Source of the DNA: an uncultured Acidobacteriota bacterium
GTDB taxonomy: Bacteria; Acidobacteriota; Blastocatellia; Pyrinomonadales; Pyrinomonadaceae
Length of the DNA: 64,000 nt
Direction: 5' to 3'
NCBI GenBank assembly: GCA_937871585.1
Contig: CALMPJ010000203.1
Coordinates: forward strand, 3,963 to 67,962
Part shown: positions 1-22,126 of the stretch, piece after piece
Layout: every line of letters starts with the position of its first letter
How positions within the stretch are numbered: the first letter of the stretch is position 1
The notes under the pieces: model-generated
The model's input: only the letters and a program-made list of their open reading frames with translations
What the model was told of the DNA's origin: nothing
Database searches by the model: none
Translations under genes and position numbers: made by a program

Positions 1-1688
1 GCAGCATCTCCTTTGTCGGTTAAAAGATCGGTCAGGCGGGACTTCTTGAGGTTCAGCACAGTCAAGATCTCGCGTTCGCGCTTTACGATCTCCGGGCTCG
101 CATCGCGACGAAAGTCTGAACCGGCAAGAGCGAGAGTGTCGCGAAGCGTCCGGGCACGTGATCGCTCGACCACAGCCAAAGCATCGGATCGAGCACGCTG
201 TTGGTCGGTTCCTAGTTTCCCTGACATCAACAGCGAAACGTAAAGATCGAATCGATCGGTAACTTTGGCAAAATACGAAGTGCGTAGGTCTGAGCCATCG
301 ATGCTCGAATGTAGTTTGTCGGTGATCTTGATCGATTCGACGATGTGCGATTCGGCCTTTTTGGCATCTCCACGCCCCGCGGCGATCCGCGCGAGGTGAA
401 AATAGTTGCGAGCAAGTTCGACGGGATCACGTATCTTGTCGTTATTCACGCGAGCGGATTCGATGAGGGCTTGAGCTTTAGCCGTGTCGCCAATTCGCTC
501 AAGCACCAGTGCGATCGAATTCTCAATGCGTGCGAGACGAACGCCTTTGCTCTCATACGCAGACATTGCCGACCTGTATTTTTCCAACGCAACGTTGAGT
601 TCGCCATTTGAAAAGGCAACGTCGCCGATCCGCTCACTGATGACGCCTAGTTGAAATTTATCGTCTAGCGATGTCGCGATCTTCCTTACCTCCTCGTAAA
701 GTCGAAGAGCCTCTTGCTTATTGTCGAGACCGAATTCGATATCGGCGATCGAGAGCATTGCACTCATACGGCCGCGCGGATTCTTGAGCCGGTCGAAATA
801 CTCGATAGCTCGCTGATAGTTAGGCCGAGCAACGTCCAATCGTCCGAGTTCGAGGTAGATCGACGCCTTGGTATTCAAAATGATGGCGTGCTCGAGCATG
901 TCGGCATCCGGAAGCAGATCAGCTTCGGCAGCCTTTAACGTCTCTAACGCCAACTGATTATCACCAAGAACTACCCGCGTATACGCAAGAGCGAAATTGG
1001 CGTTCGATCGTCCTTTCGCATAGTCATATTGTTGAGCAATGGAAAGAGCGGTATTGGCCTTGTCGAGAGTCGTAAACGGATCGTCCTCCCGTATGGCCGA
1101 ATAGCCGGAATAAATGTAAACCTGGCAAATAATCCGAGGGTCTTCGGTCGACTGCACGATCGGTTCGGCCTGCTCGAAGTAAGATCTCGCCTTTCCAACT
1201 TTGCCAAAACTGTATTCGAACAGACCCAATGAATAAAACACTGCAGCTCTATTCTCAGTTACCATAGGCAAAACTCTGAGAAGCTCGACTTGATAGGCAC
1301 GGACTTTATCAACCTTGCCCCTTTGGTAGGCCGCTAAGAAAAGAGTGTTGAGCGTTGACGCAATGTGTTCGTGTACTCCATATTGAAGAGCTATCTTGTT
1401 TGCCTTGTCTAAAGCACGCTCTGCGGACTCGAACTCAGAAACACCGATCCGAAGCTTTGCAGCTTCGTTTAAGCAGCGAATCGCGCCGGCCCTGTCTCCA
1501 TTTTCGTAAAGCTCGTTACCGACGGTTTCAAATTCACCAGATATCGCGGCAATGAGTTCAGAGCCACGAATTCGCGCCAGTTCGTAGGTTGGAGTATCCC
1601 GACACGAATATTGCGACACAGTTTGACCGGCGGCTGGTCGAAAGGCGAACATAACCATCACCGCCGTCAGTAAGCAGCAGAATAACAA
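1..1688 (-). CDS. TPR-repeat protein, N-terminal part of a probable CHAT-domain (caspase-fold) protease; the 3' end lies beyond the window
   Basis: Absent from the ORF track because it has no stop inside the window. Hand translation of the minus strand is open from ~1718 to base 1. It has a hydrophobic N-terminus (LLFCCLLTAVMVMFAFRPAAGQ) and then TPR-like units. The last visible residues (YFAKVTDRFDLYVSLLM...ALAVVERSRARTLRDTLA) match the segment that usually precedes a CHAT domain. The start is uncertain: TTG 1688, GTG 1661 or ATG 1658. Confidence 0.6.
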   Translation of the reverse strand, partial: MLFCCLLTAVMVMFAFRPAAGQTVSQYSCRDTPTYELARIRGSELIAAISGEFETVGNELYENGDRAGAIRCLNEAAKLRIGVSEFESAERALDKANKIALQYGVHEHIASTLNTLFLAAYQRGKVDKVRAYQVELLRVLPMVTENRAAVFYSLGLFEYSFGKVGKARSYFEQAEPIVQSTEDPRIICQVYIYSGYSAIREDDPFTTLDKANTALSIAQQYDYAKGRSNANFALAYTRVVLGDNQLALETLKAAEADLLPDADMLEHAIILNTKASIYLELGRLDVARPNYQRAIEYFDRLKNPRGRMSAMLSIADIEFGLDNKQEALRLYEEVRKIATSLDDKFQLGVISERIGDVAFSNGELNVALEKYRSAMSAYESKGVRLARIENSIALVLERIGDTAKAQALIESARVNNDKIRDPVELARNYFHLARIAAGRGDAKKAESHIVESIKITDKLHSSIDGSDLRTSYFAKVTDRFDLYVSLLMSGKLGTDQQRARSDALAVVERSRARTLRDTLALAGSDFRRDASPEIVKREREILTVLNLKKSRLTDLLTDKGDA

Positions 1689-1738
1689 AGCGTAACGTTT
1701 AATAGATTTGCTGTGAATACTGTCTCTACAAAACTCCT

Positions 1739-4036
1739 TTACTTTAGCTTCAATTCGGACAGGCCTTTGATCTGACCCAAGAATACCTCGTCCTTGATGC
1801 TTTTTAAGGCACTTTCGAATGAGTCTTGCACGGAGACTTCAGGCTTCTTCAATGATTTCTTCATATTCACTAGGATCTCATTGAGAGCCGCTTCGTCCCC
1901 TAGTTCTGCTATGGCATATAGTTGCTTTGCGATTTTTATCTCGTCATCGCCGCTGAGATTCCGCAATAGATCTTCTATATTGCGTTTTATCCTGGTTCCG
2001 GGTGGAACGACAACCTGCGGTAAGTTTCTGGCTACTAACGGCTTTATTATTACCGGTCGCCCTTCTTCGTTTCTAGACCGTAGTTCTGTGTTTGTAGTTG
2101 AGAAGCCGGCGATATTCCACGGCGTTTCGACATTCTTTACTCGACCGTACTGGTCGAAGAACTGGCCCATTGCTCCGGTCATGCCTCTGACAATATCCCC
2201 AAGCCCCTTGTCGCCCGGCTTGCCGTATGGAGGATATTTATTGTCGACGTCATAGGGCGGCACTTTATTGTCGACGTCATAGGGCGGAACTTTATTGTCA
2301 ACGTCATAGGGCGGCACTTTATTGTCAACGTCATAGGGCGGCACTTTATTGTCAACGTCATAGGGCGGCACCTTATTGTCAACATCATATGGCGGCACAC
2401 GATCGCCTGGTCTGCCATACGGCGGATAGCGATCGCCGGGTCTGCCATACGGTGGATATCGATCTCCAGGGCGTCCATATGGCGGATACCTCTCCGCGTG
2501 ACTCTCGTTTCCTCTAGTTATGCAGTCTTTGTCCTCAACATTCTTGTCTTTATCCTCAGTAAACGACTCGAAAATGAACGAAGAATCATTCTTACCAAGG
2601 GCAGGCGAACGACGAAACGTGATTTCGGAAAGATAAAACTCAAGAAAGGACTTCCATTTGCTGTAGACCTTTTCCTTGTCTTCTTTCGTGGTTCTATCAA
2701 CAAACCGCAGGCGAAGGTAATCGTTCAACGAAGAACAGTAGCTGTCTTTGGTCCACGGAAAATAGATCGAAATCCCATTTGAGAACTGGTTCTTACCACC
2801 CGAGAACCCGCTTAAGAGGACGCAATTTCTGACCGCTTCGATCACTGCGTCCGCTTTGCCGACAATATCAGTCAATGGAGCGAATTGTTCGACGGTTACG
2901 TTAGGGATGCTTCTGATCTCTTTCGCAAGCAATTTGCAAAGATCGACCAGATCTACATTCTGTTCCATCGTGTAGCTCTGACAGTTGAACCTAGCACTCA
3001 ACAGTGCGAGTTTGAGATGGCTGTGGCAAACGTCACTTGCCTTAAAACCCTTTATTAGTGCGTCAGCAAATGCTTCGAAAGCGCTGTCAAGTTGTTCTAC
3101 CTTTGTTGGGTCGAGATCCCAAGCTGCGATATCGACGGAGACGCTTCCAATAGCGTGACGATTTTGTTGTTTGATGTATTTATCTACAAATTGAATTGCG
3201 ATCGCTGCTGACGTACTGGAACTGTACCCATTGGCAACGTCGGCAAGCATCTGTGCATAGCTCCACCCGGTGTTCGGAATACTTCCCTCTGAAGCGACCA
3301 TTGTCTCGGCTCGTCCCTTAAACTGAGATCCAACCTCGAGCATCCCCATCATGCAACTGTCAAAGCCCAACAGTGAAACTTGCTGGCCGAGTATCTCGGT
3401 CTGCCGGCTTATGCGATAATCGTCGGACCAACCGAGTTCATCGTCGGGAATCGTCTCATTGCATTTCTTCGCCATCTCGAGTTGTCGGGCTTTGTATTTT
3501 TCCTCATCATCAGCGGCCCATTTAATTAGATCCGCCTCCTTTGATTGCATACGGTCAAGAGCCCAACGCAACTTAGACATCGTCATGTTGTAATTCGCTT
3601 TTGAGTCTTGAAACAGACCGATACTTTGAAAACCCATCGAATGACCGGAAAAGATCATTGCGTAGTTCGTACCCTTTCGCCCTTTTCTGGCTACTCCTCT
3701 TTCCATGTACTCTACCTGATTGACGCCCCAATGGACGAAGTTCAATAGGTTATACATACTTGCGGAGTTCTCATTGATGTCCCTCGGAACCTTGAACAGC
3801 TTCTCTTTGAACTTGTAGGAACGTTGGAAAGTATGGTCGTCGTACGATCCGGAAAAGTCAGCGTACAAGGTCGGAATTTCAGCCGAATAGCCATCAAAAT
3901 AAACCAAAATGTTGATGTTCTGGTTAGTTGCGGTGATCCGACGCATTTGCTCGATCGAATAGGCCATGTCCAGACTCAGGTTGTTGTCACCTGAAAGATA
4001 AATCATAAACGTCCAATCTTTCATAGATTTATTCAA
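1739..4036 (-). CDS. Clostripain-like cysteine peptidase (MEROPS C11, clan CD) with a C-terminal Pro/Tyr-rich tandem-repeat region
   Basis: 765-aa ORF. MKDWTFMIYLSGDNNLS, FSGHSMG (His context) and LLGFDSCMMG (Cys context) follow the C11 pattern. There is no signal peptide and AAGAGGAG lies upstream. The ATG at 4024 is a likelier start than the TTG at 4036. Confidence 0.75.
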   Translation of the reverse strand: MNKSMKDWTFMIYLSGDNNLSLDMAYSIEQMRRITATNQNINILVYFDGYSAEIPTLYADFSGSYDDHTFQRSYKFKEKLFKVPRDINENSASMYNLLNFVHWGVNQVEYMERGVARKGRKGTNYAMIFSGHSMGFQSIGLFQDSKANYNMTMSKLRWALDRMQSKEADLIKWAADDEEKYKARQLEMAKKCNETIPDDELGWSDDYRISRQTEILGQQVSLLGFDSCMMGMLEVGSQFKGRAETMVASEGSIPNTGWSYAQMLADVANGYSSSTSAAIAIQFVDKYIKQQNRHAIGSVSVDIAAWDLDPTKVEQLDSAFEAFADALIKGFKASDVCHSHLKLALLSARFNCQSYTMEQNVDLVDLCKLLAKEIRSIPNVTVEQFAPLTDIVGKADAVIEAVRNCVLLSGFSGGKNQFSNGISIYFPWTKDSYCSSLNDYLRLRFVDRTTKEDKEKVYSKWKSFLEFYLSEITFRRSPALGKNDSSFIFESFTEDKDKNVEDKDCITRGNESHAERYPPYGRPGDRYPPYGRPGDRYPPYGRPGDRVPPYDVDNKVPPYDVDNKVPPYDVDNKVPPYDVDNKVPPYDVDNKVPPYDVDNKYPPYGKPGDKGLGDIVRGMTGAMGQFFDQYGRVKNVETPWNIAGFSTTNTELRSRNEEGRPVIIKPLVARNLPQVVVPPGTRIKRNIEDLLRNLSGDDEIKIAKQLYAIAELGDEAALNEILVNMKKSLKKPEVSVQDSFESALKSIKDEVFLGQIKGLSELKLK
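2210..2488 (-). repeat. In-frame tandem repeat array inside the C11 gene: 1 x 27 bp (YPPYGKPGD), 6 x 27 bp (VPPYDVDNK), 3 x 30 bp (YPPYGRPGDR)
   Basis: Read directly. The six 27-bp units tttattgtc(g/a)acgtcatagggcgg(c/a)ac at 2237-2398 are near-identical at the DNA level. The 30-bp units lie at 2399-2488. Confidence 0.95.
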
Positions 4037-4189
4037 GACTCCTCTTAATAGATTTGAGCTTTGGAGAAAGCAAGCAGTAGTTTGTCGGATTCAAGAGAAA
4101 CATAGCATAAAATTCAGCATTACTCTTACCTTCTTCAGTGGTTAATGACTTTTGGAGGACAATTCCTTACAGAAAATAAAAACCGAGAT

Positions 4190-5005
4190 CTATTGCACTA
4201 CGAACTGATAGTTGAGAGTGCTCCCTTTCTCATCTGTAAGGTTTATTATGTACTTGCCTTTTGTGAAAATTTCACGCGGCAGTATAAGGCGAATCTCTTG
4301 GACAGCAGATCGGGCGAATGGGGCGATCCGATTCTGCCGAAACGCGACGGTCAAACCGCGAAAGACCGTAACGTTATATATTGTCGTATTATCGGCAGTT
4401 TCACCCAATGCAAGTCGGATGCGCACCTCTTTTGTTAGTCCAACATGTGAAAGTTCTGCCGGCGAGGCCGTCGACCTCAGGTTATCTGAAAGTAAGGTCA
4501 ATTCGGATATATTTGTATAGCTGTCGAGGAAATTCTGATCTTGATTTATCTTTTCGTATCGAACTTGCAGAGCGACAAGGGCGTCATCATTTGAAGGACG
4601 AAACACCAGCCAAATTGACGTGAACATTAGGATAAAGACTACGCCAGCCGCAGCCAATCTTAATCCGAGACTCAGGGATCTTATCCAATATAAAACCCCA
4701 GTTTCCCCAAAACTAACTCCACTTTCAGCAGACATACCATCCTTTCGTTCGGATGCAATCCGATGAAGTTGTGCGATCATCTCAACACTCTTAATTCGCT
4801 CATCCGTAACAAGATAGTTCGTCTCGAACCGAACTTCGTCCTCCGGCGTAAGTTCTTCACCGAGATACGCTTCGATCAGATTCTCTTCGGATATGGAGAC
4901 TTCCTCAGCAAAATTTGCATCTTCGAATATTCGAAGTTCAAATTCAGCTACCTCAGCTTCGGATAGACCGCCAAGGAAATAATCTTTTGATGTTGAATCA
5001 GCCAT
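4190..5005 (-). CDS. Single-pass membrane protein, anti-sigma-factor-like
   Basis: 271 aa. The N-terminus YFLGGLSEAEVAEFELRIFEDANFAEEV...LIEAYLGEELTPEDEVRFE resembles the cytoplasmic domain of anti-sigma factors found next to ECF-like sigmas. It has one TM helix (LRLAAAGVVFILMFTSIWLVF) and a ~140-aa extracytoplasmic domain. It lies 37 nt downstream of the sigma gene. Confidence 0.5.
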   Translation of the reverse strand: MADSTSKDYFLGGLSEAEVAEFELRIFEDANFAEEVSISEENLIEAYLGEELTPEDEVRFETNYLVTDERIKSVEMIAQLHRIASERKDGMSAESGVSFGETGVLYWIRSLSLGLRLAAAGVVFILMFTSIWLVFRPSNDDALVALQVRYEKINQDQNFLDSYTNISELTLLSDNLRSTASPAELSHVGLTKEVRIRLALGETADNTTIYNVTVFRGLTVAFRQNRIAPFARSAVQEIRLILPREIFTKGKYIINLTDEKGSTLNYQFVVQ

Positions 5006-5042
5006 CTAGAATCTACTTCACATCTACTTATGACCTTTTCGG

Positions 5043-5630
5043 TCATTTCCTTACATTCGCTCCGCTATCAACGCACTTCTCAACGCACGGCCGAAGCAAT
5101 CCTTTTATTCGGTGAATTTTTGTTTGTAACGCACCGACCGTAAGTCCATTATGTTCAGCCAAATGGCGTCGAGCGGCAACTCTCGTTCTACCTATGTCAT
5201 GATAGTAATCAATGATCAGATCTCCATCCCAATACTTCAAAGAATCCAAACAATTCCGCAAACACTCGATCGCCGGATCATAAGTGACCTTATTCGACTC
5301 ATTAAGCCTTTGTTCGACCTCATCATTGAATTGGATCACACGATTTTGTGCCGAGCGGAAGTACTCTAGGTACACATTTCGTGCAAAACCATAAAAGATG
5401 GCAGATGGACTGGCACCCGTGTTCCAGTCTAGAGAGTCGAAACGATTGATCACTCGATTCATCGTTTCATCGGCAAGTGTCTCTATATCGTGACAACCCT
5501 TGAGACGAAAAAATCTGTGTAAGCCCGACCGAATGTTCTCGAACTTGGCTCCGGCTTCCGCATGGTCGGTCGAAAGCCAGGCTAGCAGTCGGTCAAAATT
5601 CTCTTTGTCTACGTCTTGGCTGATCTTCAC
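5043..5630 (-). CDS. Divergent ECF-like sigma-70 family RNA polymerase sigma factor
   Basis: 195 aa with a GTG start. It has region-2-like ADETMNRVINRF...FYGFARNVYLEYFR and region-4-like HTH LTVGALQTKIHRIKGLLRPCVEKC. It is the first gene of a co-directional cluster. Confidence 0.55.
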   Translation of the reverse strand: MKISQDVDKENFDRLLAWLSTDHAEAGAKFENIRSGLHRFFRLKGCHDIETLADETMNRVINRFDSLDWNTGASPSAIFYGFARNVYLEYFRSAQNRVIQFNDEVEQRLNESNKVTYDPAIECLRNCLDSLKYWDGDLIIDYYHDIGRTRVAARRHLAEHNGLTVGALQTKIHRIKGLLRPCVEKCVDSGANVRK

Positions 5631-6069
5631 GCTACTTACACTGGGCAGAAAAGTATCGAATTGTTCGGTCAGTTCCGGGTCTCCCTACGAGGCACGACTT
5701 CCGATTCAGTAATGCCTTCGCGAATTACATTGTCGAGGTAAATTAAACTAATCGTTATCGTAATCCAATGTTCCGAATACGTCTAGGCTTACCGTTTCGT
5801 TTCACCTTCCATTCATAGACTTTTAGGCGGACCGATCGGAACTCTCAGGATGGATCAATTACGTTGATCGGAGTGCTGACCGTCTTGTCGGCTTGATCTG
5901 TAGCTGAAGTGAGATCATCGTCTTGAAACGACGCTAATTACTGTCCGGAGTGTTCGCATTCGGCAGTAGTTGCAAAAATGAGCTTCCTTTTGGGGAAAGT
6001 GTCTTTGTTGAGGCAGTTTGTTTACTGTATCTTTAGAGATTGCACTGCTGATCGGAGACGGAACTTTTA

Positions 6070-7128
6070 TTGCGAAAATACATTAAGTTCATAATTCTGC
6101 TGCTGGTTGCTGTGTTCATACTCTGGTTCTTTGGAAGGAGTTTGGATTGGCAGATGGTGCGCGCGAGCTTGGCACGAGCTAATGCGTGGTATCTAACGAC
6201 GGCGGTTCTGATCATTTGTGCCGGATACTTGCTACGGGCGGTTCGTTGGCAAGTGTTGCTTTCGCCGATCACACCAAGCAGCCTGAAGGAACTATTTGCG
6301 ACAACGACGGTCGGATATGCGGGAGTCTTTCTCATCGGACGCGCCGCTGAGATCATTCGGCCGATGTGGCTGCCGATGCGTGATAAACGTGTGCGGCCAT
6401 CGGCGGCGGTCGTGACCTTGGCTATCGAGCGCGGCTTCGATTTTGCTTCGCTGATCTCGTTTTTCGCGTTCAATATATTGTTTTTTACGGCACCGCCGGG
6501 CCGCGAAAGCGAGTTTGAGTTTGTCGAGATCGTTGGGTTCCTGATGCTCGCCGGAGTGCTCGCCGGCTTCATCTTTCTGTTCTTCTACCAACGAATATCG
6601 GACCGGTTTATTGGTTGGACAGAACGCGTTTGCAGAAAATTGCGAATTCCCGCGAGGATCCGAAAGATCATTGTCAGCATTTTGAAACATCTCGCGGCGG
6701 CAGTCGGAGTTCTGCGGAATTGGCGCCAGTTTATGCTCGCGACTTTTTGGACGCTGACGCTGTGGTTTTCGATCGCGATCCCGACGTGGCTCGTGCTACT
6801 TGCGTTCGATATGCCGTTCACGTTCGCCGATTCGCTGTTCATTATGGGAATCGCGGCGTTCAGCTCGCTTATTCCGACGCCGGGCGGAGCCGCTGGAGCG
6901 TTTCATACGGGCACGGCCGCGAGTATTTTGTTCCTAAACAGCAGCATCAGCCGCGAAGACGCTGCGGCCGCATCGATCGTAATGCACCTCGTGTACTTTG
7001 CTCCTGCAATAGTTTTCGGTTTATATTACTTTGTCCACGGTGATATCAGCGTCGAACGTTTCCGCAGCTTGCTCTCGAGTGAGCACGCTGTCGAGGAGAT
7101 CGAATCTGACGCTCCGGACCCAAAATAG
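6070..7128 (+). CDS. UPF0104 / lysylphosphatidylglycerol-synthase TM-region family (flippase-like) membrane protein
   Basis: 352 aa and polytopic. The N-terminus KFIILLLVAVFILWFFGRSLDWQMVRASLARANAWYL...LLRAVRWQVLL is typical of this family. TTG start. Confidence 0.6.
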   Translation: MRKYIKFIILLLVAVFILWFFGRSLDWQMVRASLARANAWYLTTAVLIICAGYLLRAVRWQVLLSPITPSSLKELFATTTVGYAGVFLIGRAAEIIRPMWLPMRDKRVRPSAAVVTLAIERGFDFASLISFFAFNILFFTAPPGRESEFEFVEIVGFLMLAGVLAGFIFLFFYQRISDRFIGWTERVCRKLRIPARIRKIIVSILKHLAAAVGVLRNWRQFMLATFWTLTLWFSIAIPTWLVLLAFDMPFTFADSLFIMGIAAFSSLIPTPGGAAGAFHTGTAASILFLNSSISREDAAAASIVMHLVYFAPAIVFGLYYFVHGDISVERFRSLLSSEHAVEEIESDAPDPK

Positions 7129-7620
7129 ATGCGTTGTCCATTCTGCGATCATATAGAAGACAAGGTCGTCGATTCGCGTGAATCGAAAGACGGCGATTCG
7201 ATACGCCGCCGCCGCGAATGCCTAGGCTGTGGGCGAAGATTCACGTCATACGAACGTATCGACGAGATTCCGTTCATGGTCGTCAAGAAAGACGGCAAAC
7301 GCGAACATTTTGATCGACACAAAGTGCTGTCAGGCCTACTCCGTGCAGCCGAAAAACGCCCGATTTCTACGCTTCAGCTCGAAAAGATCGTCGATGAGGT
7401 CGAGAAAAATGTTCAGGATTCGTTAGATCGCGAACTTGCGACCACAGAGATCGGCAAAATAATAATGAGGCGACTCAAGTCTCTCGACAAGGTCGCCTAC
7501 GTTAGGTTCGCGTCTGTTTATCTAGAATTCGCCGATGTTTCCGAGTTCATGTCCGAGCTTAAGACACTCGTCACATCAAGAACGGCAATAGCCGCCGACA
7601 AGAAAAAGAAAAAGAAGTGA
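7129..7620 (+). CDS. nrdR: Transcriptional repressor NrdR
   Basis: MRCPFCDHIEDKVVDSRESKDGDSIRRRRECLGCGRRFTSYERI gives the zinc ribbon, followed by an ATP-cone. The gene starts directly after the preceding stop. Confidence 0.95.
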   Translation: MRCPFCDHIEDKVVDSRESKDGDSIRRRRECLGCGRRFTSYERIDEIPFMVVKKDGKREHFDRHKVLSGLLRAAEKRPISTLQLEKIVDEVEKNVQDSLDRELATTEIGKIIMRRLKSLDKVAYVRFASVYLEFADVSEFMSELKTLVTSRTAIAADKKKKKK

Positions 7621-7623
7621 TCC

Positions 7624-9846
7624 TTACTGCGCGAGCCGCAGGTGCGAGATATTCGGATTCTGCGAGATGACGCCTGCCGACGGCGGCAAGATGTTCTGCC
7701 AACGCGAGCGATCTAGAAGCAGTCTTTCGACGTCCGCAACCTTTAATGGTTTCGAGAACAAGTAACCCTGCCCGTATTCGCATCCGAGAATACGCAGTTG
7801 ATGGAATTGGTGAATACTCTCGATACCTTCGGCGACCACCTTCAGATTTAGTGCCTTAGCAAGAGCGATAACTGTTCGTACGATCTCACCGTTTTCGGTA
7901 TTGTCTTCCATTGCACTAACGAACGACCTATCAACCTTGAGCAGATCGATCGGGAATCGATGCAAGTAGCTGAGGCTTGAGTAGCCCGTACCGAAATCGT
8001 CGATGCTGATCTGAACGCCTGTTTCTTTGATCTGTTTCAACATCAAGATCGCGGTTTCCGCGTTTTCCATGACGGCGCTTTCAGTCAATTCAAGCTTTAG
8101 GCACTGTGGCGAGATGCCGCTTTCGGATATCACATCACGGATCTGCTCAACAAGATTCGGATGCGCAAAATGTTTGCCGGAAAGGTTGACGGCAACGCTG
8201 AGCGGTTGTCCGTTTTCGTTGAGTCCTTGCCATTTCACGATCTGCTCGCACGCCGAGTGCAAGATCTGGATCGTCATAGGAATGATCAGGCCTGTGCTTT
8301 CTGAGATCGGGATGAACTCGTTAGGCGGCACTAGGCCACGTTGCGGATGGTTCCATCTTACAAGAGCTTCGAATCCGATCAGTGTCGCGGATTCGAGACC
8401 GATGATCGGCTGATAGTAAAGCTCAAACTCCTTTCGCTCGATCGCAAAACGAAGATCTGTCTCCAGCTGCAGACGCGTGACGGCACGGACATGCATCTTC
8501 TGGTCAAAGATCACGTGGTTTTCATTGTGATCTTTGGCATGATACATCGCGATATCGGCGTCGCGCAAAACGTCTTCGGCCTCAGCATATTTCGAGTTTC
8601 CAAATGCTATGCCTATCTTTACGTCGGTGAATACCTGGCGTCCATCCAGCGTGTACGGCTCGGCAACACGCTTGGCGAGACGTTCCGAAAAAGCGGTTGC
8701 CTCGTCGCGCATCAATAGATCGGTGAGAATGATGCCGAACTTGTCACCGCTGAACCGACCGACCATGTCGTCTTCGCGGACCATGTTTGTAAGACGTTTC
8801 GCCACGTTCTTGATCAACCGATCGCCTATCGAGTGTCCGAGACTGTCGTTGATCGTCTTAAATCGATTTAGATCGAGAAGTAGAACCGCAAAATTTACCT
8901 CGCTGTTGTCTCGGCTCTGCTGAAGAAGAACCTTTAGTTTATCGAGGAAAAAGTTTCGATTCGGCAGGCCCGTCAGTGCGTCGTGATAGGCAGCATGGCG
9001 GAACTTTTCGTGGCTCTCCTGTAGAGCCTCGCTGCTGCGTTCGAGTTCTTCGACGTAGTGCTCAAGCTCTTGGATATGATTCTCAGCTTGTTCTGCACGT
9101 TCGCGTTCGCTCTTTTTCGCAAACTCATTCGAACGCCGAACGTCGTTAACAAAGTGCCGGAACGTCAGATACATGATCCCGAAGAATCCTACTATTGCTG
9201 TGATCAGGTAGATGTTTACCTGTTCGAGAGCCTTTAGCAAAACGCCGGCCATCAATGCACCGCTTAGGTACATTACGAGGGTGTCGAAACAATTCTCGAC
9301 CCATACCTTTGTGAATGGTTTGTCACTCTTTATCGTTGAAAAAACCGCGACAGCGATCGAATTGACCAAAAAGAGCGAGATCGCCATTACGGCCAGCAAC
9401 CAAACAAAGCTCGTGAAATCGTGGCGCTCGAGTATCACTTCGGTCGGTCCGAAAATGGTGGAGACTACATTTGCTGCGGCAAAAACGCTGATCGCGGCGA
9501 CCATCGAATTGAACAAGATCGTTCGTGGTTTGATCGTTACGCCTTGCCGATAGAGATTCAGAGAAGCGGCCGTCGTTTCGACGGTCGCAAGGAGCAATGC
9601 GAGTGGCCCGCCGTAAAGGATCATCACCAATATGACCAAAGCGTCGGAGATGGTCAGGTGAATGTTGATTCGGGGAAGCTGAATTCGCAAGAAGCAGCCG
9701 CAAAATATCGTAAGTGCCGCGATCGTGAAATAGCCCGAGTCCATACGCACCAGCGAATCGCTCACAAGCGCCCAGCCGAGCGCAAAGAGAGCGAGTGGCG
9801 CAAGTATCGCCATGTAAAGATTTATGAGCTTATCTTTATTGTCCAT
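7624..9846 (-). CDS. Membrane-anchored GGDEF-EAL protein, probably a c-di-GMP phosphodiesterase with a degenerate cyclase domain
   Basis: 740 aa with ~6 N-terminal TM helices and a coiled coil. The GGDEF position reads SGDKF, with RxxD (REDD) 5 residues upstream. The EAL domain is intact (EALVRW, DDFGTGYSSLSYL, KVDRSF). Confidence 0.9.
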   Translation of the reverse strand: MDNKDKLINLYMAILAPLALFALGWALVSDSLVRMDSGYFTIAALTIFCGCFLRIQLPRINIHLTISDALVILVMILYGGPLALLLATVETTAASLNLYRQGVTIKPRTILFNSMVAAISVFAAANVVSTIFGPTEVILERHDFTSFVWLLAVMAISLFLVNSIAVAVFSTIKSDKPFTKVWVENCFDTLVMYLSGALMAGVLLKALEQVNIYLITAIVGFFGIMYLTFRHFVNDVRRSNEFAKKSERERAEQAENHIQELEHYVEELERSSEALQESHEKFRHAAYHDALTGLPNRNFFLDKLKVLLQQSRDNSEVNFAVLLLDLNRFKTINDSLGHSIGDRLIKNVAKRLTNMVREDDMVGRFSGDKFGIILTDLLMRDEATAFSERLAKRVAEPYTLDGRQVFTDVKIGIAFGNSKYAEAEDVLRDADIAMYHAKDHNENHVIFDQKMHVRAVTRLQLETDLRFAIERKEFELYYQPIIGLESATLIGFEALVRWNHPQRGLVPPNEFIPISESTGLIIPMTIQILHSACEQIVKWQGLNENGQPLSVAVNLSGKHFAHPNLVEQIRDVISESGISPQCLKLELTESAVMENAETAILMLKQIKETGVQISIDDFGTGYSSLSYLHRFPIDLLKVDRSFVSAMEDNTENGEIVRTVIALAKALNLKVVAEGIESIHQFHQLRILGCEYGQGYLFSKPLKVADVERLLLDRSRWQNILPPSAGVISQNPNISHLRLAQ

Positions 9847-9993
9847 TCTGACCAGTGAGTAGGCCGGAAACCGCGAGCGAAGCGAAGATATTCTGGGAGT
9901 TTAAGTGAGATGAAAACTCTGCCGACAAGTATCGGCATTTGTAATCATACGTTAAACTTTGTTGTTTGCCAAGCAAAATCTTTCATTTATTCG

Positions 9994-10028
9994 TAAAAAA
10001 GAACGGCAGAATTTTGTACTGCCGTTCT
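9994..10028 (-). terminator. Rho-independent terminator downstream of the S8 peptidase gene
   Basis: On the minus strand: agaacggcag-tacaaaatt-ctgccgttct followed by TTTTTT. Confidence 0.6.
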
Positions 10029-10072
10029 CTCTTGTTCCGAGCGTTCGCCCAGTCGTCGTTGGGATCTCGAGG

Positions 10073-12601
10073 TTACTGTCCGTTCAAAACACCATCGCTG
10101 ACGATGAGTCCGTCACTGACGAGTAAACCGTCGCTTACTAACAGCCCGTCACTAACAAGCAATCCATCGGCTATTGTATTCAGATCGATCATTCCTTGGT
10201 CGGAACCAAATAGTTTGATCGAGCCGAACATTCGGCTGCCGCGATTGATCGTTTGATACCCGGATGGAGAGGCTCCGCTCGCGAGAACTGTACCATCACT
10301 CACGATCAGGCCGTCGCTCACCAGCAAACCGTCGCTGACCAAAAGCCCGTCGCTGACGAGCAATCCGTCGCTAACCAACAAACCGTCGCTGACGAGCAGG
10401 CCAAGACCGTAGATGTCCTGATACTTCATTATCAGATCGGTTCCGGTCATCGTTCCGTAGTTCGGCAGAATGCCGCCCGACCATTGGAACTTGGTCGTTG
10501 CGATCGTCGACGCGTGATCGGGAATGTTCGTAGTCGTCAACATCGGGTCGCCTGACTGAGTGTCCGAATTCATATCCTTGCGAACAAGTTTCGCGATCCG
10601 GATCGCACCTTCGACGTTCAACTGCCCGGCTCCTTGTTCAAGCACGTTGAAATTCGCAAGCGGCTGAGCGGTGTATTCGAGCAGCACCTTGACCATGTTT
10701 GGCGTCAGTTTCGGATTGACCTGCAGCATCAGAGCTGCTGTTCCGCTAACCATCGGCGTTGCCATCGAACTGCCCGATAGCCGCATCATCCTAGTAGCAC
10801 TGCTGCCGCTGCTGGTGACGTTTACCTGAAGGACAGGATTGTTTGCCAATATCGAGCTTTCATTGCTCGCGGCAGAAACGATACGATTTCCGGGAGCGAC
10901 GAGGTCAGGTTTGATCAGATGATCGTATACTTTCTCGCCCGATTCCGTATCCGTGTAAAAGGAACGTGTTGGCCCGCGAGAGCTGAACGTCGTGACGCCG
11001 TCATCTGCGCGCTGATCGGTCTGGAACGTATTCGACGCACCAACCGTCAAAACCGAAGGATCATTTCCCGGACTGTGAATAGCACCGTACAGCTTGTTAC
11101 CGGCCAGATCGCGGCCGGTGTTGCCTGCGGCTGCAACAACAACGATACCTGCATCAACGAGACGTCGAACAGCTCGGCAGAGCGGATCGTTCCTCCATGA
11201 TTCGATCGCAGGCGTTCCTAAGCTCAGATTTACGACCTTGATGCCGTTGCTGGAACGTCCGTTGTAGATCAATTCCAAGGCACGGATAAGGTTCTCAGTT
11301 GTGCCCGAACCGTTACGGTTGAGCACACGAATGTTGAAGATCTTAGCGTTCGTAGCTAGTCCATTGTAGTTCGCGAACTCATTTCGCTCACCGGTGCTTC
11401 CGGCTGCTATCGCGGCGACATGAGTACCATGTCCAAAAGGATCGCGTGCGACCGCATTCGTGTCAGAATCTCCGGTCAGATCCGCACGTCGAGCAACGCG
11501 ACTGGTGTTGGTCGATGAATAGAACGAATGGTGCTCCTCGTATATACCTGAATCTAGGATCGCAATTCCAATGCCGGTGCCGTCGATCTTCGACGTGGAC
11601 GTTGTGGATATGTTTATCGGAAGTCCAAGGGCGTTGACACCAAGTACGGTCGTCGTTTGCGTCCAGTTTCGGATAAGAGAAGCTCCGGTCGTTGCTTCTA
11701 CGTGACCGAGCTTTACGATCGGACGGTCAAGCGAAAGGTGTTTTGCCGAATCCAATGCCGCAATTGCCTCAGCGGCCCGCAGCGGCATCTCGATCGCCAT
11801 CATTTCGAACGATTCGGCCCGGGTTGAGATAATTACGCCGTTCTTGTTGAGAACACTGACGAGCCGTGGATCGTTCAGATCGTCCGATTGCAAAATAACC
11901 TTTACGGTCCTATTTTGATCGGCGCCGGCCATCAATTCTCTGAGATCAGGTGAGATCTTGTCTCCTACAAACGAATCGTCGTTGCCCTTTGCCAACGCGA
12001 TCTGCTCGAACGTGTTTCGCAGCTTAGCGTCCTCTGTAACGGTAGCTTCGAATTCGGTCGACTTGGCTGCTGTAAAGATCGAGATCTTGCCGTCAATGGC
12101 GGCTTGTCTTAGCACTTCCGATGCTATAGGGCCAAACATTGCGTTTTGCTGCGATATCGCTGCAAGGTCATCCAGATAGATCGCCGTTTTCTCGGCTTTG
12201 GCCGTAGCAACCACTTTCTCAAGCTCAGACCTGAGCTCTTCATCGCTCCTCACGTTGGAGAAAAGGTTACGCCATTCGATCCTGACCATTCGGCGACCGC
12301 TACTTTCGAGTCGTGCTGCTAGTGAGCTGAGAACGCCGTCTCGGGCGTAACCATACTCGTCGATCAGCACGACGCTCTTTCCTTTGCCGCTGATGACACG
12401 AGCCGCCGAATCCGATTCGCGATCGAATTGCGGCTTTGCGTGACCTGCGACCAAGCTTACGTAGTTGTTTGCATCTGTCGTTTGGCTAGTTGTGCGGTCA
12501 CCGACGCGGACACCTTTGGCATCCTGGCCAAAGGCTCCAACCGGCAACAGCATCGCACTGACCAGAACGGCAGCAAGCAACTTTGCGGTTTGCTTATTCA
12601 T
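10073..12601 (-). CDS. Exported subtilisin-family (S8) serine peptidase with an N-terminal Clp-like module, an I9-like propeptide and C-terminal GLLVSD repeats
   Basis: 842 aa with a Sec signal (MNKQTAKLLAAVLVSAMLLPVGAFGQ). The catalytic triad contexts are DSGIYEEHHSF, HGTHVAAIAAG and SGSSMATPMVSGTAALM. GAGGA lies upstream. Confidence 0.85.
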   Translation of the reverse strand: MNKQTAKLLAAVLVSAMLLPVGAFGQDAKGVRVGDRTTSQTTDANNYVSLVAGHAKPQFDRESDSAARVISGKGKSVVLIDEYGYARDGVLSSLAARLESSGRRMVRIEWRNLFSNVRSDEELRSELEKVVATAKAEKTAIYLDDLAAISQQNAMFGPIASEVLRQAAIDGKISIFTAAKSTEFEATVTEDAKLRNTFEQIALAKGNDDSFVGDKISPDLRELMAGADQNRTVKVILQSDDLNDPRLVSVLNKNGVIISTRAESFEMMAIEMPLRAAEAIAALDSAKHLSLDRPIVKLGHVEATTGASLIRNWTQTTTVLGVNALGLPINISTTSTSKIDGTGIGIAILDSGIYEEHHSFYSSTNTSRVARRADLTGDSDTNAVARDPFGHGTHVAAIAAGSTGERNEFANYNGLATNAKIFNIRVLNRNGSGTTENLIRALELIYNGRSSNGIKVVNLSLGTPAIESWRNDPLCRAVRRLVDAGIVVVAAAGNTGRDLAGNKLYGAIHSPGNDPSVLTVGASNTFQTDQRADDGVTTFSSRGPTRSFYTDTESGEKVYDHLIKPDLVAPGNRIVSAASNESSILANNPVLQVNVTSSGSSATRMMRLSGSSMATPMVSGTAALMLQVNPKLTPNMVKVLLEYTAQPLANFNVLEQGAGQLNVEGAIRIAKLVRKDMNSDTQSGDPMLTTTNIPDHASTIATTKFQWSGGILPNYGTMTGTDLIMKYQDIYGLGLLVSDGLLVSDGLLVSDGLLVSDGLLVSDGLIVSDGTVLASGASPSGYQTINRGSRMFGSIKLFGSDQGMIDLNTIADGLLVSDGLLVSDGLLVSDGLIVSDGVLNGQ
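10091..10168 (-). repeat. Hexapeptide array DGL(L/I)VS x4 at the C-terminus of the S8 peptidase
   Basis: 18-bp periodicity. The peptide is conserved while the codons differ between units. Confidence 0.9.
10292..10402 (-). repeat. Hexapeptide array GL(L/I)VSD x6 in the S8 peptidase
   Basis: 18-bp periodicity with synonymous differences between units. It is separated from the distal array by a 41-aa spacer. Confidence 0.9.
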
Positions 12602-12787
12602 AATTCCTCAAAAAAGGCACAAAACTTACAACAGAGCGGGGCAATGCTCGCGATGAATACTGCAACGGATGTGCCATCGGCATTGAAGCACGTAAGTTAC
12701 TGTAAATAAGAATGTTACGGTGTTCTGGCTGTTGTCCGGGACGGGAAGTATCGTTCAAAATGACCGAAAGTATCGGTCAGATCGAAC

Positions 12788-12820
12788 AAAAAAAAGGCCG
12801 CCCGTTTTGCGGACAGCCTT
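12788..12820 (-). terminator. Probable rho-independent terminator after the DUF1501 gene
   Basis: On the minus strand: aaggctgtccgc-aaaa-cgggcggcctt (imperfect stem) followed by T8. Confidence 0.5.
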
Positions 12821-12843
12821 AATAGATGAATGAGCCATTGAAA

Positions 12844-14370
12844 TTACGGCATCATAAAGTCGAGCGCGGAATTTGATCCCGGGAAGAACTGCAGGTTCGG
12901 GAACACTGCATTTAGCGTGGTCGCGTCCTGCGGCAGTCCGTACCATTTCGCAAGCGTAGCCGCGTATTGATCTACCGAAGTTGTCGGGAGCCAACGTCCG
13001 CGGGCACCTGAGCCGCTATCGACGTCGTCCGGACCGGCGAAAGTGAAAGTAGGGAAGTAATCTCCGCTGCCATCAGGACGCCTGCTTCCGTAGAAATCGC
13101 CGCCGATAACTGAGCCGCCCATGACGAGCATATGGTTGCCCCAAGCGTGATCCGAACCAACGGTCGCACCGGAACCTGCCGGATTGAACGTACGGTTGAA
13201 ATCAGACAGCGTGAATATAGTCACGGCTTCCTGCATATTGTCACCGCCGCCGGTCGTTTGAGCTGCCATTTCATCCCAAAACGAACGAAGAGCCTGGCTG
13301 ACCTGTCCGAACAAAGTATTCTGGCCACCGAGTTGATTCGAGTGAGTGTCGAAACCACCGATCTGAACGTAAAATATCTGACGTGTCGTGCTCAACGCAG
13401 TTCGATTCTTGACCAGTCTGGCTACCTGACGAAGCTGACGGCCGATGCCCGTATTCGGGAATGCCACTGTCGTGTCCTGCGACGTCTGAAACGCAGTGTC
13501 CGCAGCGATCGCTTGATCAGTGACCAAGCTTGCGGCACGCAAGTGATTCGACGTAAGTAGATCCTGCTGACGAAGCTGATTGAACGCCGTAAATCGCGTC
13601 AGGTTCGTGCCTGTTACTGGATTACCGTAGCCGGCCGGATGCAGTACATTCGCCAATGTCGTATTCGAATCGGCAATTGCAAGCGGCAGCGTGGTTTGAC
13701 CGGCCGTAAACAATTGAGCACCTGAGATCGATGTGATCATCGGGATAAGCGGCCCAGCCTGAGTCATACGGTCGGAAATACGGCCGCCCATACCGGTGAA
13801 CGCCTGCGTTCCGGCAAATCCGGCCTGCGACTGAGCAACCTGATCCGAATGCGAAAACATCTGGTACGGCTTTGGCACCGAACCATTCTGGTACTGAGCC
13901 TTTGTCATCGGACGCACGAGGTTCCCGACGTTGACGACAGCGGCAAGCTTTCCTTGTGCCCAAAGCTCGTGGATACCGTTATTGATACCGCCGGTGATGG
14001 GACCAAAATTCGGATGCAATCCATATTGCAGGCCGCCCATTCGCGGAACGGTGATCGGCAAAGCCGCAGGATTTGTTCCCTGGCCGTGTGCCAAGCCTTG
14101 CGTGCCGCGAGCGGCTACATATTGATCGTAATTGCTCACCGACGCATCGGAGTGCATCGGAATGATCATATTGTTGCCGTCATTGCCGCCGGCAAAATAC
14201 AGCAGCACTAGGGCTTTGTAGGTAGTGCCAAGGTTCGATTCGCCGGTGTCGTGGGCCTGCTGGGCCAACGCACTGATGGTGCCGAGGTGCTGCATCTGGG
14301 TAGCCAGAGACACCATTCCGAGGGCACAGCCGCCCGATTTTTTCAGAAATTCGCGTCTTGATTCTTTCAT
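12844..14370 (-). CDS. DUF1501 family protein (sulfatase-fold) with a Tat signal
   Basis: MKESRREFLKKSGGCALG gives the twin-arginine signal. GGFDTHSNQ, SDFNRT and GSDHAWGN are DUF1501 hallmarks. Confidence 0.85.
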   Translation of the reverse strand: MKESRREFLKKSGGCALGMVSLATQMQHLGTISALAQQAHDTGESNLGTTYKALVLLYFAGGNDGNNMIIPMHSDASVSNYDQYVAARGTQGLAHGQGTNPAALPITVPRMGGLQYGLHPNFGPITGGINNGIHELWAQGKLAAVVNVGNLVRPMTKAQYQNGSVPKPYQMFSHSDQVAQSQAGFAGTQAFTGMGGRISDRMTQAGPLIPMITSISGAQLFTAGQTTLPLAIADSNTTLANVLHPAGYGNPVTGTNLTRFTAFNQLRQQDLLTSNHLRAASLVTDQAIAADTAFQTSQDTTVAFPNTGIGRQLRQVARLVKNRTALSTTRQIFYVQIGGFDTHSNQLGGQNTLFGQVSQALRSFWDEMAAQTTGGGDNMQEAVTIFTLSDFNRTFNPAGSGATVGSDHAWGNHMLVMGGSVIGGDFYGSRRPDGSGDYFPTFTFAGPDDVDSGSGARGRWLPTTSVDQYAATLAKWYGLPQDATTLNAVFPNLQFFPGSNSALDFMMP

Positions 14371-14375
14371 GTTAG

Positions 14376-16658: not shown

Positions 16659-16862
16659 AGCTTTCCCTCCAAAAGAACTATCAATTGTGTGCTAAACGAG
16701 AACCAATGATCTGCGGAACGTTTGACCGTACAAAAATGTTTTACAACAACTAAAGATACACGAAATCGGCGATCTTAACAAGCAAAAAATCTGCGGTGAC
16801 TTTTTGTGGATTTCGTTCAGCATAAATAAGACGATCTTAGACCGAATTTAGCCGAAAAAAGA

Positions 16863-21337: not shown

Positions 21338-22126
21338 TTAAACCGAAATACGAGCATTAGTTTCCGTAGAACCAACGCCGTTCTCGAACAATAGTTTGTG
21401 CATTGGAAATTCTTCGTCAACGAATTGTAGGTGCAGCGTGGTGTCCTTACCGTCCTTCGAAACTTTCCGATTTCGCACTTCGGCGATGCTGTAGAAATCG
21501 TATTCTACGCAAGCGATCTTTACCTTTTCGCCTAGCTCGACCTCGAGGTCGCAGCCGACCGAGAGTCCGCTTGCGCTAATATCCTTTGACCTCGCCCGTA
21601 CTTTAGCGGCATCTTCGCGAGTTCGCTTCATTTGCGAGACCGTAAGCTCAATTGAGCGCCAAAAACGTGGATTCTTACGAGGCTTGAACTGCGAATTGGC
21701 TTCGGTGATCGTCCACAAACCGTTTGCTGCTACACCTGAGAATCGATAGTTCTGCTTCGGATCAGCCTTGAAACTCTCAGGCATTTCTTTGCCGACGAAA
21801 CCAACGCCGACCTGAAATACCTTATTACCGTTTTGATTGGTCTCTGTGACGTGCTGAACGAGGCCGAGAACAGGATACAATTCGGCGTCTTCGTCATACG
21901 CGCGAAATTCGACCGGCATTGGCAGAACTAACGATACGAGCCGTCCGACCTCGACCTTTTTGGTCAATGTAAATCCGGCACCGTTTTTCGAAACCGTCGA
22001 AACTGCGGTGACCTCTTTCCAAGCCTCACTGACTGATTCTTTGACTTGAACGATGGTCTTTAAGTCGGTTGATAATCGATGCGACCGGCGGTCGTCTTGG
22101 GTTTTTGTTACGTTGGTACTGCTCAT
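21338..22126 (-). CDS. Tandem (double) PilZ-domain protein
   Basis: RRSHR...VSKNGAG and RKNPR...DISASG are two RxxxR + (D/N)xSxxG-type motif pairs. It is a paralogue of the next gene. Confidence 0.65.
   Translation of the reverse strand: MSSTNVTKTQDDRRSHRLSTDLKTIVQVKESVSEAWKEVTAVSTVSKNGAGFTLTKKVEVGRLVSLVLPMPVEFRAYDEDAELYPVLGLVQHVTETNQNGNKVFQVGVGFVGKEMPESFKADPKQNYRFSGVAANGLWTITEANSQFKPRKNPRFWRSIELTVSQMKRTREDAAKVRARSKDISASGLSVGCDLEVELGEKVKIACVEYDFYSIAEVRNRKVSKDGKDTTLHLQFVDEEFPMHKLLFENGVGSTETNARISV

Follow-up and report, generated by a model that had tools for sequence, protein, structure and literature searches.

A conserved four-gene locus of Acidobacteriota may form a split, DdvS/DdvA-like ECF sigma module with an added clostripain-family peptidase

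What do two proteases of clan CD do beside a sigma factor of the extracytoplasmic function (ECF) type and the membrane protein that may restrain it? This question is raised by one end of a 64,000-nt stretch of DNA from an uncultured Acidobacteriota bacterium of the Pyrinomonadaceae (contig CALMPJ010000203.1, positions 3,963 to 67,962), to which we refer as the window. On the minus strand of window positions 1-5630 we found four consecutive open reading frames (ORFs) with intergenic gaps of 37, 153 and 50 nt, at the very coordinates given by an earlier reading of these letters (the original prediction). They encode a sigma factor, a putative anti-sigma factor, a clostripain-family (C11) peptidase and a protease with tetratricopeptide repeats (TPR) and a CHAT domain. 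We propose, with about an even chance of being right, that they form a split, DdvS/DdvA-like acidobacterial ECF sigma signalling module plus one added protease. The analysis was wholly computational: gene content, conservation, catalytic residues, predicted topology and motif positions are all computed. Within the window, the locus comprises the following features:

5043..5630, minus strand: divergent ECF-type sigma factor, 195 aa (TIGR02989, orthologue alignment, profile search of the PDB)
5030..5055, minus strand: ECF-type promoter-like motif TGTAAGGAAATGACCGAAAAGGTCAT, overlapping the final codons of sigma and ending 24 nt 5' of the anti-sigma ATG
4190..5005, minus strand: putative single-pass anti-sigma factor, 271 aa (position, transmembrane prediction, weak NCBIfam matches)
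4145..4171, minus strand: the ECF-type promoter-like motif again, as TGTAAGGAATTGTCCTCCAAAAGTCAT, lying some 120 nt upstream of where C11 starts
1739..4036, minus strand: clostripain-family (C11, clan CD) cysteine peptidase, predicted to be cytoplasmic, 765 aa (PF03415, AlphaFold2, Foldseek)
2237..2488, minus strand: tandem DNA repeats inside the C11 linker, 27 nt x 6 (95% identity) and 30 nt x 3
1..1688, minus strand: TPR-CHAT protease, predicted to be exported, N-terminal 562 codons; the rest lies past the window edge

The truncated gene could be completed on ENA contig NODE_1145 (L001). Its reverse complement agrees with window 1-13232 at all but 1 of 13,232 nt, and the contig runs 5.4 kb past the window start. 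The contig was reached through a 755-aa, 100% identical member of the C11 cluster (P0003) that begins at a later ATG; an exact look-up of the 765-aa C11 product had matched no entry because the gene is called from this later start. The completed gene encodes 1043 aa, and its product scored 227 bits with Pfam CHAT (PF12770; cut-off 24, E 4.4e-67) over residues 689-1000, spanning profile positions 4-289 of 289. The CHAT domain with H857/H861 and C911, a C-terminal transmembrane helix and a basic tail all lie beyond the window (L001:13233-14676). The CHAT domain expected by the original prediction was thereby found; the residues quoted there as its lead-in do lie upstream of the domain but are not the last visible ones. 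The other gene identities proposed at that stage also held, with 90.6 bits for C11, TPR family matches (TPR_12 and TPR_MalT on the truncated gene) and a TIGR02989 match for the sigma factor. The catalytic Cys and His that both proteases were required to have are in place: H857, H861 and C911 of CHAT are invariant in 12 aligned orthologues, and H132 (window 3641-3643), D226 and C228 (window 3353-3355) of C11 in 36 aligned relatives. Further 3' on L001 follow genes for 502, 88, 232 and 284+ aa; they carry no Pfam domains and are conserved in none of the other loci examined, which places them outside the core module.

Are the four genes together by chance? A scan with one genome per GTDB species returned at least 468 C11 relatives, and the 80 listed loci, nearly all from Pyrinomonadaceae/Blastocatellia metagenome-assembled genomes, were fetched and searched as six-frame ORFs by phmmer and by iterated hidden Markov models (HMMs) built from the window proteins. 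TPR-CHAT lies directly 3' of C11 in 13 of 81 distinct loci, at a spacing between a 14-nt overlap and a 125-nt gap, and 11 of these 13 also hold the sigma and anti-sigma genes. The module is co-directional, as in the window, in L001, L004 and L008. In L005, L006, L007, L011, L013, L015, L020 and L069 the sigma/anti-sigma pair is convergent with C11-CHAT, and the convergent gene ends often overlap. When the search was anchored on the anti-sigma instead, all three sampled representatives (E 1e-43, 3e-26 and 1e-21) showed the order sigma > anti-sigma > < TPR-CHAT < C11. Taken together, all four genes occur in 14 distinct loci, 11 of which are convergent, and C11 plus TPR-CHAT is linked to sigma/anti-sigma in 14 of 15 informative loci. 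Counted by genome or metagenome contig, the set returns at least 14 times beyond the window, within Pyrinomonadaceae/Blastocatellia. Flanking genes differ by locus; carB (~1000 aa, upstream) stands beside the module in five of them. With two rearranged gene orders and reciprocal recovery from the anti-sigma side, we rejected chance adjacency. We conclude that the four genes are a conserved functional unit, in line with the co-conservation anticipated by the original prediction. They are not a single operon, because most loci are convergent and promoter-like motifs precede the anti-sigma gene and C11 separately; the earlier picture of one operon behind one switch was therefore abandoned.

The sigma factor is a divergent ECF member, since it scores below the curated cut-offs of the family models. 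TIGR02989 matched residues 43-183 at E 1.5e-14 (profile positions 22-158 of 158) and recognised 11 of 11 orthologues; TIGR02937 (sigma70-ECF) recognised 7 of 11, and Pfam Sigma70_r2 reached only E 1.2e-3. A profile search of the PDB found SigW (5wuq) at E 0.005. As expected for ECF (group 4) factors, just the sigma2 and sigma4 domains were recognisable by family models, a putative regulator gene adjoins, and a motif like their usual target promoters (-35 AAC, -10 (C)GT, ~16 nt apart) is present. No hydrophobic segment was predicted, and the protein is predicted to be cytoplasmic. Four cysteines are invariant in the family and flank region 4, in the patterns CLxxC (C123/C127) and CxxxC (C182/C186), and C46 is near-invariant in the alignment. 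These cysteines suggest a metal or redox site in the sigma factor itself.

Directly 3' of the sigma gene, in 14 of 14 distinct module loci, lies the gene of the putative anti-sigma factor. The protein appears to consist of a helical cytoplasmic N-domain (~1-91), a transmembrane helix (117-135; window 4601-4657), a linker of ~55 aa and an Ig-like beta-sandwich (193-270), and one transmembrane segment at about residues 115-140 was predicted in 11 of 11 orthologues. The N-domain may bind the sigma factor. A Pfam scan gave no match. NCBIfam 'antisigma' matched residues 7-52 of the window protein weakly (E 0.021), and the orthologues gave weak matches to NF052375 (4 of 11, best E 0.0034) and one to PRK13920. 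The AlphaFold2 model, from a 5-sequence alignment, was poor, with a predicted local distance difference test (pLDDT) score of 57.5 overall and 65-85 in the end domains. Foldseek with the ectodomain returned generic Ig-like folds only and no recognisable ligand-binding family. The HxxxCxxC motif of the zinc-binding anti-sigma (ZAS) subclass was absent, the window protein has no Cys in its cytoplasmic domain, and the alignment holds no conserved His/Cys column; R70 in the cytoplasmic domain is invariant, as are L171 and R177 in or near the linker, which is modelled with low confidence (136-192). A profile search of 1.84 billion representatives placed 640 50%-identity clusters in this family at E<=1e-10. 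The top 150 relatives measure 209-333 aa, nearly all of them 250-300 aa, and are thus too short for a fused TPR-CHAT. From the PDB, the anti-sigma profile retrieved only spurious matches, to transmembrane proteins and cytochrome b562 fusions.

On which side of the membrane do the two proteases act? In the alignment, a Sec-like signal sequence, a hydrophobic helix at the C-terminus and a short K/R-rich tail (2-7 K/R, at most 1 D/E) are seen in 12 of 12 TPR-CHAT orthologues; a hydropathy threshold is passed by 11 of 12 N-terminal segments and 10 of 12 C-terminal helices. Most of the protein is thus predicted to reside in the periplasm, held at the inner membrane by its C-terminal helix. The C11 proteins have the first strand of the caspase-like fold at their very N-terminus (MKDWT...), no signal peptide or hydrophobic segment was found in any of 36 family members, and C11 is predicted to be cytoplasmic. 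An exported TPR-CHAT beside a C11 without signal peptide had been proposed for the window genes, and alignment and hydropathy of the 12 and 36 family members agree with it. The TPR-CHAT frame is open 5' of TTG 1688 and continues past the C11 stop (window 1688-1760, minus strand). A start at this TTG leaves a signal peptide without the basic n-region found in most orthologues, which a non-canonical upstream start such as ATT 1718 (...KSIKRY...) would restore.

What does the sigma factor transcribe? An alignment of C11 upstream regions revealed one conserved block, TGTAAGA-N15/16-(G)TCAT. In the 64-kb window, TGTAAG-N16-GTCAT occurs exactly twice, against 0.22 copies expected from shuffles, and both copies lie directly upstream of module genes (anti-sigma and C11). 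The motif recurs at the sigma/anti-sigma junction in L004, L005, L008 and L015, and L006, L007, L008, L015 and L069 have it in the conserved place upstream of C11; L004, L013 and L020 show weaker variants there. A position weight matrix matched 21 times across the 218 kb of module loci, and the other C11 loci, 927 kb in all, yielded 3 matches; the comparison is partly circular as the matrix derives from module loci. Two loci outside the matrix set, L084 and L086, carry the motif where the sigma and anti-sigma genes meet, and L086 also has it upstream of a divergent astacin gene. In module loci, the motifs point toward the gene immediately 3'. In L008, the accessory genes behind the motif encode an outer-membrane beta-barrel protein, a 1158-aa PD40/FG-GAP protein and a membrane hexapeptide-repeat transferase; motif-preceded accessory genes also include secreted proteins lacking assigned function, and a degenerate copy just outside the window precedes the secreted 502-aa protein of L001. 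The accessory copies are:

L008:15332-15357, 20124-20149 and 21567-21592: three motif copies
L004:15461-15486: motif copy
L086:4902-4927: motif copy
L001:14781-14806: the degenerate copy

The geometry resembles that of the DdvS promoters mapped by 5' rapid amplification of cDNA ends, with GTAA-n16-GTC here and GTAA-n16-CGT there (PMC6061681). We infer that the motif is the target promoter of this sigma factor. If so, the regulon would comprise the anti-sigma gene, C11-TPR-CHAT and variable envelope genes.

Another conserved element sits between the ECF-type motif and the C11 start, at window ~4040-4140 (minus strand). It reads TTTTGTnGTAnnGT and then TTCTaCAC, and resembles an extended -10 box (sigma-A-like). 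RNAalifold on the C11 leader gave no conserved structure, so the element is not explained as RNA; Rfam matched nothing in window 1-6200. A scan for sigma-70 promoters and terminators gave no more matches than shuffled sequence, and no terminator was found in the intergenic gaps of the module.

The closest characterised system is DdvS/DdvA of Myxococcus xanthus, an ECF sigma factor with a single-pass anti-sigma factor and a ~900-residue periplasmic TPR-CHAT with a His-Cys dyad (PMC11506125). The DdvA TPR-CHAT was proposed to cut its own anti-sigma linker in trans as a site-1 protease, followed by RseP (PMC11506125). Common to both systems are the ECF sigma factor, a single-pass anti-sigma (here putative) and a periplasmic TPR-CHAT His-Cys module (here by prediction). 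DdvA is a fusion of zinc-binding anti-sigma domain, transmembrane helix and TPR-CHAT, whereas in 14 of 14 module loci one gene encodes the anti-sigma (271 aa in the window) and another the TPR-CHAT (1043 aa), which has its own signal peptide and C-terminal membrane anchor. The anti-sigma here is small and has an Ig-like ectodomain but no zinc-binding CHCC motif. The CHAT domain of DdvA lacks three helices, while the one described here covers the full Pfam profile, and the cytoplasmic C11 peptidase is an obligatory extra member. The DdvS regulon is CBASS (cyclic-oligonucleotide-based antiphage signalling)/CRISPR, as opposed to the presumed envelope regulon here, and DdvA-like fusions have been reported only in Myxococcota and one Comamonas, as opposed to Acidobacteriota here. 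PDB sequence searches with TPR-CHAT (full protein, profile and CHAT part) retrieved generic TPRs and the craspase CHAT at E ~1, and the truncated TPR part, used as a query for homologues, brought up no more than two distant matches. As PDB searches with TPR-CHAT and the sigma factor did not recover DdvA/DdvS, no specific kinship can be claimed. Judged by sequence, the module does not belong to the DdvA family in the strict sense: it has neither the fusion nor the zinc motif, and no specific kinship.

As the module has the parts of DdvS/DdvA in the corresponding predicted compartments, we favour a split version of this design as a working mechanism. The cytoplasmic N-domain of the anti-sigma would hold the sigma factor at the membrane. 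A Sec signal peptide would direct the export of TPR-CHAT, and its C-terminal helix would fix it on the outer face of the inner membrane, where the TPR array may sense a periplasmic, probably protein, cue. CHAT would then clip the anti-sigma linker or Ig-like ectodomain as the site-1 cut, a cleavage that is plausible by analogy with DdvA, and this cut would allow intramembrane proteolysis and release of the sigma factor. The original prediction had likewise let an exported TPR-CHAT clip the anti-sigma ectodomain, without citing the DdvA precedent. The free sigma would transcribe from GTAAG-N16-GTCAT promoters, driving the anti-sigma gene as negative feedback, the C11-TPR-CHAT pair both as output and as positive feedback, and envelope genes that differ between genomes. 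C11 would be a sigma-induced cytoplasmic protease, probably Arg/Lys-specific, whose targets may be the anti-sigma fragment left after release or other proteins of the cytoplasm; each substrate named for C11 in this text is a candidate.

Several points weigh against this reading. Upstream of the sigma gene, where ECF systems usually have one, no copy of the motif was found. Were C11-CHAT made only after sigma release, CHAT could not be the initial trigger unless there is basal expression. The 271-aa protein is assigned as a putative anti-sigma by position, topology and weak HMM matches (E 0.003-0.02), and it lacks the HxxxCxxC zinc motif of DdvA-type domains; TPR-CHAT has no detectable specific sequence kinship to DdvA. 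In the sole exception among the informative loci, L019 (C11-TPR-CHAT pair at 9989-14914), sigma and anti-sigma were not detected within 6 kb of the pair; the contig continues. Finally, the role of C11 is the least constrained step.

The regulon-like pattern of the motif, upstream of C11-TPR-CHAT and of the relatives' envelope genes, would be expected if the two proteases were output only. Sensing would then fall to the Ig-like ectodomain of the anti-sigma together with generic proteases (a DegS/Prc-like site-1 protease and RseP), and C11 and TPR-CHAT would be mere regulon members, stress-induced proteases of the cytoplasm and the periplasm, neither of which acts on the anti-sigma. C11 paralogues that adjoin ECF43-type sigma/kinase pairs without any CHAT fit this explanation as well. 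We consider it possible but doubtful: accessory genes vary, whereas C11/TPR-CHAT stay with sigma/anti-sigma in 14 of 15 loci, which is tighter than usual for targets; the precedent of DdvA puts TPR-CHAT in a sensing position; and the anti-sigma ectodomain is a small generic sandwich of no recognisable ligand-binding family.

How does C11 fit into the split DdvS/DdvA-like scheme? The protein matched Peptidase_C11 (PF03415) at E 2e-25 (90.6 bits against a cut-off of 25.8). The frame given by the original prediction (1739-4036) is correct; its start is likelier ATG 4024 (MKDWT..., as in homologues) than TTG 4036. The AlphaFold2 model (pLDDT 75, predicted template modelling score 0.75) shows a confident protease part (~1-490), a disordered repeat linker (516-637) and a small folded C-terminal module (640-765). 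Foldseek matched the model to clostripain (9cip_A, E 6.8e-11), 6mzo (TM-score 0.70) and 6n9j. C11 enzymes favour Arg/Lys at P1, and D226 lies two residues before C228, which we take to match the placement of the S1 aspartate in PmC11. With clostripain, PmC11, thetapain/iotapain and fragipain, the protein shares the fold, the His/Cys dyad and the Asp two residues before Cys. The characterised C11 members are all secreted or periplasmic (Firmicutes, Bacteroidota), whereas the family described here has no signal peptide; it differs further by a ~95-residue insert between His and Cys, the disordered repeat linker, the conserved C-terminal module and an almost constant place beside a transmembrane signalling protein. 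The linker (pLDDT ~30) contains the repeats VPPYDVDNK and YPPYGRPGDR, encoded by the 27-nt and 30-nt tandem DNA repeats, and its length and repeat type vary across the family. A match of these repeats to Spt5 C-terminal repeats (8qsz, E 4e-7) was dismissed as spurious. In the module at ~640-765 (window 1739-2120, minus strand), a small beta-sheet is followed by helical repeats with weak alphaRep/HEAT-like matches. The pattern FKN(I/V)E..WN..GF at its start is conserved in all family members, and the helical part in the closest relatives only.

The wider C11 family suggests a broader role. In about 60 C11 loci without TPR-CHAT (L010-L083), nearly all have a ~930-aa transmembrane Ser/Thr kinase adjoining C11; these kinases carry a periplasmic PD40 propeller (e.g. 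L045:2089-4857), and 24 loci also hold a PF07638 Sigma70_ECF sigma (e.g. L018:9125-9700). In a neighbour-joining tree of C11, the CHAT-linked members branch deeply, and the kinase-linked ones make up almost all of one large derived clade. Members of the C11 family thus almost always have a transmembrane sensor as their neighbour, TPR-CHAT or kinase, often plus an ECF sigma, a wider pattern that the original prediction had not noted. C11 looks like a general partner of ECF signalling in the Blastocatellia lineage. Full-text literature searches found no description of the kinase/sigma/C11 triad or of a link between C11 and ECF sigma factors.

This family-wide coupling to a transmembrane sensor, often with an ECF sigma, leaves a slim chance that C11 is itself part of the release machinery. 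It would destroy the sigma-bound anti-sigma fragment after both cuts, like ClpXP in Escherichia coli, and its kinase-linked paralogues would process an equivalent inhibitor. Its predicted cytoplasmic location and intact dyad agree with such a task, as do the invariant R70 in the cytoplasmic domain of the anti-sigma and the conserved, family-wide module behind the linker, which could be a docking domain. This case is wholly inferential, however; a C11 made only after sigma release could not be needed for the first release, and the kinase-linked ECF43-type sigmas are thought to have no anti-sigma (PMC8999054).

A more far-reaching version of the split scheme, which we regard as unlikely in its full form, is a two-protease switch across the envelope. 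Here the free-standing, tethered CHAT would be a dedicated site-1 protease in trans, and C11 a dedicated cytoplasmic arm that destroys the anti-sigma fragment or executes the response. The C11 family without signal peptide would be an obligatory but hitherto overlooked ECF partner in Blastocatellia, plugged into either CHAT/anti-sigma or Ser/Thr-kinase sensors. A direct relay between the two proteases, with C11 as a substrate of CHAT, had been suggested for this locus; it is unlikely because both are predicted on opposite sides of the membrane, C11 in the cytoplasm and TPR-CHAT in the periplasm.

Could the module rather serve in conflict? In an abortive-infection system, a cue at the envelope, from a phage or a competing cell's effector for instance, would activate CHAT, and the sigma factor would induce C11 as a promiscuous cytoplasmic 'executioner'. 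Two clan CD proteases with a sigma factor recall such systems. In type III-E craspase, the TPR-CHAT protein Csx29 cleaves Csx30, a binding partner of the ECF-like sigma RpoE/CASP-sigma (PMC10028731). Both systems couple a TPR-CHAT gene with an ECF-like sigma and a sigma-binding inhibitor, which in the present module is putative; 2 of 11 sigma orthologues weakly matched the type III-E RpoE-like model NF041236 (E 1.5e-5). The CHAT catalytic Cys region aligns with Csx29 only weakly (E ~1). The craspase TPR-CHAT is cytoplasmic and RNA-guided, whereas the one described here carries a signal peptide and is predicted to be exported, and the putative inhibitor is a membrane protein unrelated to Csx30, with C11 also present. 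The type III-B system of Haliangium ochraceum, in which SAVED-CHAT acts on a PCaspase with PCc-sigma and PCi (bioRxiv 10.1101/2023.06.23.546230), shares the two clan CD proteases, the sigma factor and the idea of a relay. Unlike there, we found just TPR and CHAT, and no SAVED domain or cyclic-oligonucleotide signalling, and the second protease is a C11 rather than a C14 PCaspase and sits in a different predicted compartment from CHAT. In one related module locus, L087, the C11 gene is flanked at 2 kb by a phage-type integrase upstream and a caspase gene (Peptidase_C14) downstream (4658-5845 and 15926-16846).

The neighbourhoods speak against such a role. PADLOC-DB v2 gave no significant match for the four module proteins or three downstream proteins, apart from generic TPR matches and marginal ones to PDC-M71B, BovA and AbiEi models at E 0.002-0.009. 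No CRISPR, CBASS, gasdermin or toxin genes adjoin the module in any locus, and no cas matches, Cas7-11 included, were found among the scanned neighbours, in which CRISPR arrays were not explicitly searched. The sole module-conserved neighbour on the gene maps is carB, a housekeeping gene, and the module's context is chromosomal. The C11 family is highly paralogous and usually accompanied by ordinary transmembrane Ser/Thr kinases, and the different predicted compartments of CHAT and C11 make direct zymogen activation unlikely. The conflict or defence cascade put forward in the original prediction is thus very improbable.

An association of ECF sigma factors with CHAT proteins is already known, from DdvA, from the craspase proteins Csx29/Csx30/RpoE and from the ECF54 context (PMC8999054). 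The conserved context of ECF54 holds CHAT, subtilase and carboxypeptidase genes (PMC7826278, PMC8999054); the likeness is the genomic association of ECF sigma and CHAT, and the difference that ECF54 is described without an anti-sigma, the cited example being actinobacterial. The PF07638 sigma/kinase pairs of the C11 paralogues resemble the Ser/Thr-kinase-regulated ECF43 (PMC7826278, PMC8999054), and neither group description mentions a C11 peptidase. Full-text literature searches found no description of a free-standing periplasmic TPR-CHAT with a separate anti-sigma. With this module, the combination of CHAT and ECF sigma would reach into Acidobacteriota, soil bacteria that are abundant yet have received little study, and the breadth of its anti-sigma family amounts to hundreds of 50%-identity clusters. 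The site-1 model of DdvA has resisted testing, as a single polypeptide there serves as both protease and substrate. As TPR-CHAT and its presumed anti-sigma substrate are separate proteins here, the CHAT model becomes directly testable in vitro and by simple genetics. A cytoplasmic C11 beside transmembrane sensors would be a new role for a family otherwise known as secreted enzymes.

Elsewhere in the window, positions 10073-12601 (minus strand) encode an 842-aa secreted protein. The contig look-up held no Pfam entry on record for it; the protein has a subtilisin-like active-site region and many tandem GLLVSD repeats near its C-terminus.

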